From a bacterium (GTDB lineage Bacteria; Bacteroidota; Ignavibacteria; Kapaibacteriales; Kapaibacteriaceae): a stretch of DNA of 64,000 nucleotides. The notes beneath the pieces were generated by a model. It did no database searches, was not told where the DNA came from, and saw nothing but the letters and a program-made list of their open reading frames with translations. Below, piece after piece: positions 7,829 through 62,838 of this stretch. The position numbers and the translations under genes were made by a program. The DNA is taken from contig JAWXBR010000013.1 of NCBI GenBank assembly GCA_034440235.1, positions 2,188 to 66,187 on the forward strand, read 5' to 3'. How positions within the stretch are numbered: position 1 is the stretch's first letter; every line of letters begins with the position of its first letter.

Positions 7829-7846
7829 AGCGCTAATTTACAGGCT

Positions 7847-8170
7847 ATGGACAAAGAAGACTTCTTCGAGCGTGTGTATGCAGTCGTGCGTCGTATCCCC
7901 TAGGGCAAGGTCACGACGTACGGCGCAATTGCCGAACTGCTCGGCATGAAATCGTCAGCGCGGATGATCGGTTGGGCTCTGAACGGTGTGTCACTGCGCG
8001 ACCGCACGGACATACCATGTCATCGTGTCGTAAATCGAAACGGAGATTTATCTGGCGCAATGCATTTCGAAACACCATTCGTTATGCGCGAACGCCTCGA
8101 AGCAGAACGCGTTGGTTTTGTGGGCGATCGGGTGGATTTAAGCGTACACTTATGGAAACCGATAGCGTGA
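7847..8170 (+). pseudogene. MGMT/alkyltransferase-family protein interrupted by an in-frame TAG at 7901-7903
   Basis: ATG 7847 gives MDKEDFFERVYAVVRRIP*GKVTTYGAIAELLG...IPCHRVVN. The conserved HTH start and the PCHRV active-site motif are in one frame with a single amber stop. Confidence 0.85.
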
Positions 8171-8976
8171 AAGATTCAATTCAAAATATGATTCTGGACT
8201 TCTATTCACCGCGCCCGCATACAACCATTGATGTTGATGTAAAGAGCCTGGAAAGAGCAATAGCAGAACAGTTAACGAAGTATTGGGGTGGATACGTTGA
8301 ATCGCGACGGTCAAGTGATAGCTCTACGATTGAACTTCGTGGTCTGCTTAAGAATGCCATTCAGCGCATTCAAACACCTGAATTTGAGACGGCAGACGTC
8401 CTCCTAGTCGTGCTCGACGATTGTGCATTAGTGAATGGCCATGCATTCGTTAAAAATGGAATTGGTATAGCCTTTTATGTACTCAAAGACGGATATAGCA
8501 TTGCCTTTCATCGGGTGTTTGCGATGCATGAGATTATTCATGCAATTCACTACAAGCTTAATTCGACGTTTGCCTTCGACACCTCTGAGTGGCAACAGCA
8601 AACTTCGAGGCAGTTACTATGCGAGGGCATTGCGACGGTGTTCACTGCAATCGCTTTACGTATTAGTATGAAGGAGGCATTGTGGTCGGATGCGCTATCT
8701 CACGCGACTGTAGATGGCTGGATGCTTGCATGTGAGAGTTCGAAAGGTGAACTCTGTCAGCAGGTGCTTGACAACTTCGATCTAAATGCGCCTTCGGGCC
8801 TTTTTCAGTTTGTACCAGAAGCAGTGCCAATCGCGAATCGTAGCGGGTATTGGCTAGGCTCTCTCTTCATTTATGATCTACTCGACAAAGGTTGGTCTGC
8901 GCAAGAAATACTGCTTGCTCCGTACTCCGTTTTATCTGAGCAGCTTAGAGGATGGCTACTAGGAAATGCCGACTAG
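8152..8976 (+). CDS. Putative Zn-dependent protease (DUF2268-like, HExxH)
   Basis: AMHEIIHAIH and a downstream LCEGIATVF, plus GYWLG. Start placed at METDS (8152), overlapping the MGMT stop. Confidence 0.65.
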   Translation: METDSVKDSIQNMILDFYSPRPHTTIDVDVKSLERAIAEQLTKYWGGYVESRRSSDSSTIELRGLLKNAIQRIQTPEFETADVLLVVLDDCALVNGHAFVKNGIGIAFYVLKDGYSIAFHRVFAMHEIIHAIHYKLNSTFAFDTSEWQQQTSRQLLCEGIATVFTAIALRISMKEALWSDALSHATVDGWMLACESSKGELCQQVLDNFDLNAPSGLFQFVPEAVPIANRSGYWLGSLFIYDLLDKGWSAQEILLAPYSVLSEQLRGWLLGNAD

Positions 8977-8984
8977 TAGCAGAG

Positions 8985-60954: not shown

Positions 60955-61245
60955 TTACCACGCGAGCATGCCGCCTTTCAAATTCTTGAGCTTGGTGTAG
61001 CCGCTGGCTTCGAGGAAATGAATGGCCTGACCGCTTCTGTTGCCACTGCGGCAGTACACGATAATTTCTCGTCCCTTGTAATTGTCGAGCTCGTCTAAAC
61101 GGTCGGGTAATTCGTTAAGCGGAATGAGCAGGGAGTGTGCGATGTTTTTTTCTTCGTGCTCTTCGGGCTGACGTACATCGAGCATGATGATGTCTTCGCC
61201 AAGGTCGAGACGACCTTTTAATTCAATTGCAGTTATCTCATCCAT
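60955..61245 (-). CDS. Single-domain rhodanese (sulfurtransferase)
   Basis: MLDVRQPEE...IPLNEL...VYCRSGNRS...LKGGMLAW. Confidence 0.93.
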   Translation of the reverse strand: MDEITAIELKGRLDLGEDIIMLDVRQPEEHEEKNIAHSLLIPLNELPDRLDELDNYKGREIIVYCRSGNRSGQAIHFLEASGYTKLKNLKGGMLAW

Positions 61246-61308
61246 TGATGTTTTTTTTTCAGATAGTTTAACAACGCCAGGCATTGTTTGCAAGGTATTC
61301 TAATAGCG

Positions 61309-62724
61309 TTAGGCATTGGTTGCAGGCGGCATCTCTACTGGCTTGCCAGCCGATTCCCATCCGCCGAAGCCGGGAGGGAAGTTGATGATGTTGGTGAAGC
61401 CTTCTTTGCGTAGGTAGGTGGAAGCGACCATCGATCGGTCACCACCCTGACATGCAACGACGACGGTGCCGACGCGTGGAATTTCGTCGAGATGTTCGTC
61501 GAGATGCCCGCCGTGAATGTTATGTGCCCCCGGAATAAAGCCCTGAGCATGTTCGGTGGCAGCACGGACGTCGAGAATGTAGAGGTCTTCGCTCTGTAAA
61601 ACGCTTTCGAGTTCGTCGGCTGTCATTTGTGCCAGCACATCGAGCGGACGTCCTTCTCCCTTCCACTCTTCGATGCCCGAAAGATAACCTTGTATATTAT
61701 CGAGTCCGATGCGCATAAGATTGCGCGCGAGTTGTTCGATACGATCTTCCGCTGCAACAAGAAAAAAGGGATGTGAATACGGAATCATCCATCCGGCCCA
61801 CGTTGTAAACGATTTTATATCCTGGATGTTCACACTCGTCGGGATATGTCCGACGACATACGCGCTCTTATGTCGAGTATCTACAACCCACTCCGAATTA
61901 TCTAACGCCTCTTGTATATCTGCAGGCGAAACACGATGTGGAATGTGGACTTCGGTTTTTAACGGACGTTCTTCTTTGTTGAGCCGCTTCATGTGTGCGA
62001 AGTAGTAAGGGGGCTCGGGCTGACCCGAAAGGAGCTCTTTAACAAATGCTTCTTCGTCGGTGTGACGCATGGCCCAATTCACAATCTTTTCATATCCGAC
62101 GGTCGACGATGGTACGGCCCCTAGGGCTTTGCCGCAGGCAGAGCCCGCCCCATGCGCAGGATGTACCTGGATGTGATCGGGTAGTTGTTTGAAGCGTTGG
62201 AGAGAAGCGAACATCTGACGTGCGCCTGTGTCGCTTGAGCCTGAGGTGCCGACGACTTTTTCGAGGAGGTCGGGACGTCCCACGTCGCCTACAAACACGA
62301 AGTCGCCAGAGAAAAACATCAGCGGTTGGTCCGAAGCCGCGCCGTCGGTAACGAGAAAGCTGATATGCTCTGGGGTATGTCCGGGCGTATGCCACACCTC
62401 GACAACGAGGTTGCCAACCTTGAATACATCACCATTGCGGAGTCCGTGATGCTCGAAGGCATACTGCCAGTCCGAACCGCCTTCGTCGCTAAGCATCATC
62501 TGCGCACCAGTTACGGCATTCAATTCGCGCGATCCACATAGGAAGTCGGCATGGATGTGTGTTTCGGCAGCCATGGTGATGCGAAGGCGCTCGCGACGTG
62601 CTGTGCCGAGGTAGCAGTCGATGTCACGCTGGGCGTCGATGACCATTGCGTCGCCCGTGGCCTGACATCCGATGATGTATGAGGCGTGGGCAAGGTTGGG
62701 TTCGTAGAAACGGGAGAAGAACAT
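61309..62724 (-). CDS. MBL-fold hydrolase fused to two rhodanese domains (persulfide dioxygenase-sulfurtransferase, CstB/Blh-like)
   Basis: ETHIHADF, HTPGHTPEH, FSGDFVFVGDVGRPDL, HPAHGAGSACG; C-terminal VACQGGDRS. A -7 box 5 nt upstream supports start 62724. Confidence 0.92.
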   Translation of the reverse strand: MFFSRFYEPNLAHASYIIGCQATGDAMVIDAQRDIDCYLGTARRERLRITMAAETHIHADFLCGSRELNAVTGAQMMLSDEGGSDWQYAFEHHGLRNGDVFKVGNLVVEVWHTPGHTPEHISFLVTDGAASDQPLMFFSGDFVFVGDVGRPDLLEKVVGTSGSSDTGARQMFASLQRFKQLPDHIQVHPAHGAGSACGKALGAVPSSTVGYEKIVNWAMRHTDEEAFVKELLSGQPEPPYYFAHMKRLNKEERPLKTEVHIPHRVSPADIQEALDNSEWVVDTRHKSAYVVGHIPTSVNIQDIKSFTTWAGWMIPYSHPFFLVAAEDRIEQLARNLMRIGLDNIQGYLSGIEEWKGEGRPLDVLAQMTADELESVLQSEDLYILDVRAATEHAQGFIPGAHNIHGGHLDEHLDEIPRVGTVVVACQGGDRSMVASTYLRKEGFTNIINFPPGFGGWESAGKPVEMPPATNA

Positions 62725-62838
62725 TGATGCAAAGATAGGGGGTCTTTGTGAACCGAGTCGCTCGATTGGTACACCGCGCGTTGATTGCAGAGAGCAGTTG
62801 GAATACGTTGCCGAAAGTAATGCAACAACAACTACTCT

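Follow-up and report, generated by a model that had tools for sequence, protein, structure and literature searches.

TAnnTTTG promoter boxes abutting start codons and probable leaderless mRNAs in a family of Kapaibacteria

Boxes matching TAnnTTTG, the -7 element of Bacteroidota promoters, end 3-6 nt before the start codon of a substantial minority of genes in an uncultured bacterium from a Kapaibacteria family, known from a metagenome-assembled genome (MAG) of 3.04 Mb (71 contigs, 50.5% GC). The analysis started from a 64,000-nt stretch of this genome (contig JAWXBR010000013.1, positions 2,188 to 66,187; hereafter the window), in which such boxes stand directly before the ATGs of five genes, among them the ribosome-biogenesis GTPase gene der. 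We find that the boxes are, with good probability, promoters of the sigma-ABfr type that would put the transcription start (+1) on or beside the AUG and so give rise to leaderless or near-leaderless mRNAs.

Promoters of this type, with a -7 element TAnnTTTG and a -33 element TTTG, have been described in Bacteroides fragilis, B. thetaiotaomicron, Flavobacterium johnsoniae and F. psychrophilum. In the mechanism that we propose for the Kapaibacteria genome, (I) the boxes would serve as -7 elements read by its single short sigma-ABfr-type primary sigma factor (287 aa), (II) a box ending 3-6 nt before the ATG would let the polymerase begin on the A of the AUG or at most a few bases from it, and (III) the resulting mRNAs would have a leader of 0-4 nt and be translated by direct recognition of the 5'-terminal AUG. 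A spacing of 6-8 nt would correspond to leaders of 1-4 nt and a spacing of 3 nt to a slightly closer start, and individual genes would gain or lose their leader over evolutionary time.

Results

Boxes before five start codons in the window

An earlier note on this DNA had reported five boxes lying 3-5 nt 5' of ATGs, and all five are where it put them, at the spacings it gave. They are listed here with their genes, followed by one exact box in a leadered position for contrast.

10594-10601, minus strand: -7 box TAGATTTG, 4 nt before the amine oxidase ATG at 10589
8985..10589, minus strand: flavin amine oxidase family gene, 534 aa (PF01593, E = 7.9e-49)
27684-27691, minus strand: -7 box TATTTTTG, 3 nt before the Phd-like antitoxin ATG at 27680
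27447..27680, minus strand: Phd/YefM-like antitoxin, 77 aa from the boxed ATG (PF02604, 26.9 bits, below the 29.8-bit cut-off)
48783-48790, plus strand: -7 box TACCTTTG, 3 nt before the der ATG at 48794
48794..50116, plus strand: der, ribosome-biogenesis GTPase, 440 aa (TIGR03594, 558 bits)
62730-62737, minus strand: -7 box TATCTTTG, 5 nt before the MBL-rhodanese ATG at 62724
61309..62724, minus strand: MBL-fold hydrolase fused to a rhodanese domain, 471 aa (GloB-like and rhodanese matches)
7833-7840, minus strand: variant -7 box TAAATTAG (TAnnTTAG), 4 nt before the flavoprotein ATG at 7828
6074..7828, minus strand: FAD-dependent protein (flavoprotein), 584 aa (PF21688, E = 3e-66)
6013..6020, minus strand: exact -7 box in leadered position, 28-37 nt before the start of the gene at 5280-5984

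TAnnTTTG is not enriched in the window as a whole, with 15 sites against 26 +/- 5 in dinucleotide shuffles. Four of these 15 sites lie 3-5 nt before an ATG that opens an open reading frame (ORF) of 77-534 aa, and the signal is thus where the boxes sit, not how many there are. The starts of three of the five genes can be fixed. Der residues 3-431 correspond to positions 2-432 of the 432 in TIGR03594, with the G1 motif beginning at residue 8; residues 2-42 of the Phd-like antitoxin correspond to positions 3-43 of PF02604; and the N-terminus of the MBL-rhodanese protein, MFFxxxYEPGLAHAS, is kept from residue 1 in 11 genomes. Profile alignment in the first two cases and N-terminal conservation in the third therefore settle these starts. 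The N-terminus of the flavoprotein is likewise conserved from residue 1 among its relatives.

A sharp spacing peak across the genome

The earlier note had proposed a genome-wide histogram of box-to-start distances. We made the test independent of start calls: the genome has 725 TAnnTTTG sites, and downstream of each one we recorded all ATGs that head an ORF of 100 codons or more. This gave a sharp peak at box-to-ATG distances (d) of 3-6 nt. At d = 0-10 nt the counts for the exact box are 3, 0, 4, 20, 38, 25, 16, 8, 9, 4 and 3, so that d = 3-6 accounts for 99 of the 725 sites over a background of ~3 per position; the Poisson probability of this ORF-filtered peak is ~3e-49. Beyond d = 10 the counts are ~1-5 per position, plus a broad second hump at ~21-45 nt. 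The mode at d = 4-5 matches the transcription start site (TSS) measured 4-5 nt after the box in F. johnsoniae (PMC6847099).

The peak belongs to a narrow set of motifs. GTTTnnAT, TGnnTTTA, TAnnTTTC, TAnnTTTA, TAnnTTTT and TAnnnTTTG, taken through the same genome-wide test, gave no peak, and TAnTTTG gave a small excess at d = 4-7 (12, 6, 7 and 5). Read backward as GTTTnnAT, the box is an unmatched control, being 2.3 times commoner in the genome than TAnnTTTG; its replacements were the same box at a different spacing and ORF-filtered histograms. Of the 18 variants with a single mismatch, TAnnTTCG alone peaks as well (49 sites, 11 expected). TAnnTTAG, the form found before the flavoprotein gene, is weakly enriched genome-wide (9 sites, 3.4 expected), and TAnnTTGG and TAnnTTT[A/C] show marginal excesses of the same kind.

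We consider it next to impossible that the arrangement is a chance or compositional artefact, with TA..TTTG and ATG merely co-occurring in AT-rich intergenic DNA. Such an effect might be read into AT-rich relatives, where raw counts made without the ORF filter show a small excess at d = 3-6 (ratios 1.1-1.8), but these raw excesses largely vanish once the filter is applied. Here the peak stands with the filter on, the reversed, one-base-shifted and single-mismatch controls are flat, the genome is not AT-rich (50.5% GC), and the arrangement is kept across genera at orthologous genes.

Boxed ATGs as gene starts at the heads of transcription units

A home-made ORF and hexamer gene caller returned 2415 genes with a coding fraction of 92%. 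Of these genes, 161 (6.7%) have TAnnTT[TC]G 3-8 nt before their ATG. The in-frame coding score of the boxed ATGs is -12.8 in the preceding 90 nt and +8.2 after them, compared with an upstream score of +1.45 for other candidate ATGs, and 72% of them have an in-frame stop at most 90 nt upstream. Exact boxes at d = 3-8 are followed by ATG 110 times, by GTG 8 times and by TTG once, while at neighbouring offsets the three codons are about equally frequent (12, 9 and 10).

The position of a gene relative to its neighbours matters as well. Where the upstream neighbour is co-directional and overlaps or abuts the gene, 0 of 538 genes have a box; with a gap of 0-12 nt the share is 2%, with a larger gap it is 6-9%, and it reaches 31% (29 of 94) in divergent gaps of 30-60 nt. 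Being absent from operon-internal positions and frequent in short divergent gaps, the box therefore fits a promoter and not a ribosome-binding signal. In sum, these data support the view that boxed ATGs act as true gene starts at the heads of transcription units.

The same data bear on whether the boxes could be real promoters whose genes start further downstream, with ordinary leaders and boxed ATGs that are never used. This would be conceivable inasmuch as start calls are computational and no profile match covers the first ~80 residues of the amine oxidase or of the flavoprotein. For der, Phd, MBL-rhodanese and the flavoprotein, however, profile alignment or N-terminal conservation excludes a downstream start, the spacing peak is specific to ATG, and coding potential switches on exactly at the boxed ATG. 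We therefore judge downstream starts to be very improbable.

A single-box promoter and a short primary sigma factor

The context of the box reads (c)G-TAnnTT[T/C]G-C, with a strict element and G/C flanks. In 110 aligned promoters the information content further upstream of the box is zero. A positional excess of the -33 TTTG was not found 5-44 nt upstream in 163 promoters, and an AT-rich, UP-like tract upstream of the box was looked for and not found. The promoter thus appears to consist of the box alone, without a -33 element. Similarly, the -33 element is undetectable in F. johnsoniae and B. thetaiotaomicron (PMC6847099, PMC7366714).

TAnnTTTG is 2.6-fold enriched in non-coding DNA. In coding DNA it is ~3.5-fold rarer than composition predicts and ~1.7-2-fold rarer than its own single-mismatch relatives, and this depletion is seen on both strands, which suggests selection against spurious promoters. 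Sub-words of the box are the top strand-asymmetric k-mers upstream of genes. AGCATAC and GCATACT are also strongly strand-asymmetric upstream of genes (16:0 and 16:2 in co-directional intergenic regions); they have no relation to the -7 box and could be part of a different regulatory or sigma motif.

Could the box instead be a translation signal, a ribosome-binding or "Kozak-like" element that does not rely on the Shine-Dalgarno (SD) sequence and is part of a longer leader whose promoter lies further upstream? Its position is that of a ribosome-binding site, and 70% of heads have no strict box, so that other promoters must exist. Low SD use is typical of Bacteroidota-type genomes and is seen here too, with GGAGG only weakly enriched 4-7 nt before starts (~60 excess sites genome-wide; the 16S 3' end lies outside the assembly), and upstream motifs of a non-SD kind are known from such genomes (GeneMarkS-2 group B, PMC6028130). 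A translation signal should, however, also precede operon-internal genes, where the count is 0 of 538. Moreover, before other genes the same strict motif forms a broad, promoter-like hump at distances of 20-45 nt; its sequence is that of the -7 box defined by experiment for sigma-ABfr; coding DNA has been purged of it on either strand; and in MBL-rhodanese orthologues it shifts to 33-40 nt upstream while the start codon stays fixed. We thus regard a translation signal as improbable, if slightly less so than unused boxed ATGs, and keep to the promoter reading.

The earlier note had drawn its comparison from Bacteroides. The host is a member of a Kapaibacteria family and no Bacteroides, so its use of a Bacteroides-type promoter needed testing; what holds of the comparison is that the genome does encode a short primary sigma factor of the sigma-ABfr type. 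The nearest relatives of its Der protein come from Candidatus Kapaibacterium and Kapaibacteriota MAGs (77-92% identity), and identity falls to ~55% in Ignavibacteria and ~50% in Bacteroidia. A single RpoD-like gene is present, with a product of 287 aa. This protein aligns to solved SigA/RpoD chains only from their residue ~100-350 onward (region 1.2), and region 1.1 is therefore missing. It is 69% identical over residues 1-287 to a Flavobacteriaceae RpoD that is itself 287 aa long, 74% identical to an Ignavibacteriales copy and 91-98% identical to copies inside its own order. Judged by these alignments, the primary sigma factor is of the short sigma-ABfr type described for Bacteroidota (PMC6847099, PMC7366714). 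An exact TAACTTTG box also lies ~40 nt 5' of the ATG of rpoD itself, and rpoD is therefore leadered (contig C53 of this genome, locus L191, 2359-2410, minus strand).

Conservation of the boxes at orthologous genes

The amine oxidase gene keeps the arrangement across genera. Seven family genomes, one for each of 7 genera, have an orthologue, and in every one the start is preceded at 3-5 nt by a strict box, as TAGATTTG in three of them and as TAACTTTG, TAGATTCG, TATCTTTG and TATCTTCG in the others. Six of the starts are ATG and one is GTG, and the box-to-start link is kept even though the first 45-66 residues have diverged too far to be aligned. The variant box of the flavoprotein gene recurs as TAACTTAG at +4 nt in a genome of the same genus (G001) and as TAATTTAG at +5 nt in one of another genus (G006), with changes only at the "n" positions and TAnnTTAG retained; it is not present in genome G004.

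At der, which the earlier note had singled out as a core gene, the leaderless-type layout is present here and is conserved within the genus only. A same-genus MAG has the identical box, spacer and ATG but a different sequence upstream of them. In other Kapaibacterium MAGs the box is either missing or 43 nt upstream, and in Flavobacteriia a box lies ~19 nt upstream. The MBL-rhodanese gene has the same box in a same-genus genome, 6 nt before the ATG. Its orthologues in three other genera begin at the same conserved MFF... start, with a strict box 33-40 nt upstream. Since the box moves while the start stays, leaders would be gained and lost gene by gene. In a 568-kb sample of genome G004, 32 strict boxes lie at d = 3-6 over a background of ~1.5 per position, and about half of the orthologues of these leaderless-type genes are also leaderless-type in the genome studied here.

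Restriction to one family

Spread among genomes was measured by counting the same box at two spacings. The ratio of counts at d = 4 to those at d = 12 is 2.0-16.7 in 13 of 13 family genomes (8 genera) and 0.47-1.5 in 8 genomes from 8 sister families of the same order. A second comparison, of d = 3-6 with d = 11-14, covered 151 genomes sampled evenly from 46 families of the phylum; here the ratio is 3.2 in this genome and 2.8 in the other sampled member of the family; elsewhere the highest value is 1.84 (genomes with more than 100 matches).

With the ORF filter, the abutting peak is seen in G004 and not in G013, G083, G143 and G168. It was not found in 400-kb samples of a same-order genome (33% GC), a same-class genome (32.5% GC), a same-phylum genome (34% GC) and an Ignavibacteriales genome (33% GC). 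The samples without a peak thus lie at 32.5-34% GC and the family at 50-56%. A Flavobacteriaceae genome has only a small abutting peak (5 + 5 sites at d = 4-5). Raw excesses of 1.1-1.8 in AT-rich genomes were dropped as a sign of leaderless genes, having gone unconfirmed in ORF-filtered samples. By these counts, the predicted trait is sharply family-specific and common to all sampled genomes of the family.

The der loci of Ignavibacteria (L004-L016) carry an element of their own. In 11 of 13, all except L010 and L011, they share TTTCATTCC...TATTTTT[C/G]-4 nt-ATGAAA; the element sits ~20 nt upstream of the ATG, and its box-like part, ending in C or G, lies 4 nt before it. These loci had hinted that Ignavibacteria might share the trait, an idea rejected on a 400-kb Ignavibacteriales sample, which has no TAnnTTTG or TAnnTTTC peak.

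How widespread the arrangement is

The 725 exact boxes can be sorted by position: 117 are abutting, ~129 precede a co-oriented start by 9-150 nt (against ~30-40 for comparable control motifs), 343 lie deep in coding DNA and 48 more lie near called starts. Among 1160 candidate heads of transcription units, 122 (10.5%) are leaderless-type by the strict box, and strict boxes 9-150 nt upstream are found at 175, compared with 80 for a control motif. Matches of 5/6 and 4/6 add roughly 100 heads at the abutting offsets, which raises the share to about 17-20%. We estimate that about 150-160 genes (6-7%), 10-20% of transcription-unit heads and about half of the gene-proximal strict boxes are involved. 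Leaderless mRNAs had been called widespread in the earlier note; a substantial minority bears this out in part, and the word is too strong in that most genes are not included.

Discussion

Motif, spacing and its statistics, restriction to heads, preference for ATG, type of sigma factor and conservation are matters of direct observation in these genomes. The TSS and the leaderless mode of translation would follow from setting the 3-6 nt between box and ATG beside the published 4-5 nt between box and TSS. Several points weigh against leaderless transcription from these boxes. First, the counts are approximate, since the gene calls come from the home-made caller described above. Second, 818 of the 1160 heads (70%) have no strict box; the promoter repertoire is therefore only partly understood, and the claim to be widespread is limited accordingly. 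Third, a 3-nt spacing, found at der, at Phd and at 36 of 163 sites in all, puts the usual start at 4-5 nt inside the ATG, so that a slightly closer transcription start must be assumed. Fourth, the Phd gene offers an SD-preceded alternative: 45 nt before the boxed start, at 27725, stands another ATG in frame, with a perfect AGGAGG 5 nt before it (27723-27736, minus strand). The 15-residue extension that this ATG would add falls outside the Phd profile; the gene may have dual starts with two routes of initiation, or the upstream ATG may be a relic. Finally, to our knowledge, the RNA polymerase and ribosomes of Kapaibacteria have never been studied by experiment.

Two parts of the picture are already known, namely the -7 box with its sigma factor and the marking of leaderless genes by a promoter box at a fixed distance. 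The genome resembles established sigma-ABfr systems in its -7 consensus and its short sigma factor without region 1.1, and a minority of leaderless mRNAs is known from those systems too: 3.7% of 5' untranslated regions are shorter than 10 nt in B. thetaiotaomicron (PMC7366714), the leaderless share is 5.5% in F. psychrophilum (PMC9723704), and leaders no longer than 10 nt make up at most 13% in F. johnsoniae (PMC6847099). It differs in that no other position of the box is as common as the abutting one, in tolerating the variant TAnnTTCG, in having G/C rather than A/T-rich flanks, and in its host, which belongs to the Kapaibacteria and not to the Bacteroidia. Comparing predictions from sequence here with TSS maps there, the abutting layout would be several times commoner in this genome than in the Bacteroidota studied so far.

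Frequent leaderless transcription is also known from GeneMarkS-2 group C, which comprises Actinobacteria and Deinococcus-Thermus (PMC6028130, PMC3160421). As in that group, a promoter element stands at a fixed short distance before the starts of first genes, with a sharp spacer peak that makes it predictable from sequence. The element in group C is a Pribnow-type TAnnnT ~6-10 nt from the start, whereas here it is the Bacteroidota -7 element at 3-6 nt. In group C, 25-50% of operons are leaderless, compared with 10.5% by strict and 17-20% by relaxed matches here, figures obtained with a predictor other than GeneMarkS-2. A survey of Bacteroidetes/Chlorobi reported leaderless genes in 1 of 37 genomes, at 2.4% (PMC3160421), and ~90% of Bacteroidetes/Chlorobi genomes have been assigned to the non-SD group B (PMC6028130). 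That earlier surveys found essentially no leaderless genes in Bacteroidetes/Chlorobi is due in part to their having searched for Pribnow-type boxes only. Our literature search found no paper on leaderless genes in Kapaibacteria or Ignavibacteria. What is new here is the sharp family-specificity of the trait, a modest extra point.

One evolutionary account would be that a single Kapaibacteria family moved a large share of its sigma-A promoters until they abutted the start codon, a shift in which the 8 sister families and the other sampled members of the phylum took no part. We offer this tentatively, as a possibility that we rate somewhat below an even chance. If it were true, the family would represent a lineage-specific turn to leaderless initiation inside the FCB group, changes to match would be expected in its translation-initiation machinery, and a single 8-bp box without an upstream element would be a sufficient promoter. 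The data suggest in any case that the strict 8-bp element may act as a promoter on its own, which is consistent with its ~3.5-fold purging from coding DNA.

Bacteroidota-type bacteria do not rely on SD-led initiation for the selection of start codons. With 10-20% of its transcription units apparently leaderless, and with sister families that lack the trait, this clade makes a natural comparison for what lets leaderless initiation expand. Gene-start prediction in these uncultured lineages would also improve if the abutting -7 box were modelled. Start calls based on the longest ORF are misled at three genes of the window, choosing a TTG inside the box at der, an upstream GTG at MBL-rhodanese and an upstream ATG at Phd.

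Additional features of the window

The flavoprotein gene contains an in-frame repeat of 8 x 21 nt at 6964-7132 of the window (89% matches). The 51 residues of the repeat part (239-289) are missing from all relatives, the same-genus genome included.

Elsewhere in the window, a palindromic TAAATTTA at 22064..22071 lies 4 nt from each of two divergent ATGs (22059, minus strand; 22076, plus strand). The gap between the two genes (21298-22059, minus; 22076-23410, plus) is 16 bp long and is made up of 4 nt, TAAATTTA and 4 nt. On both strands TAAATTTA reads TAnnTTTA, a motif with 5 sites at d = 4 genome-wide over a background of ~1.3 per position, and it is a candidate for a two-way leaderless promoter with a weak variant box.

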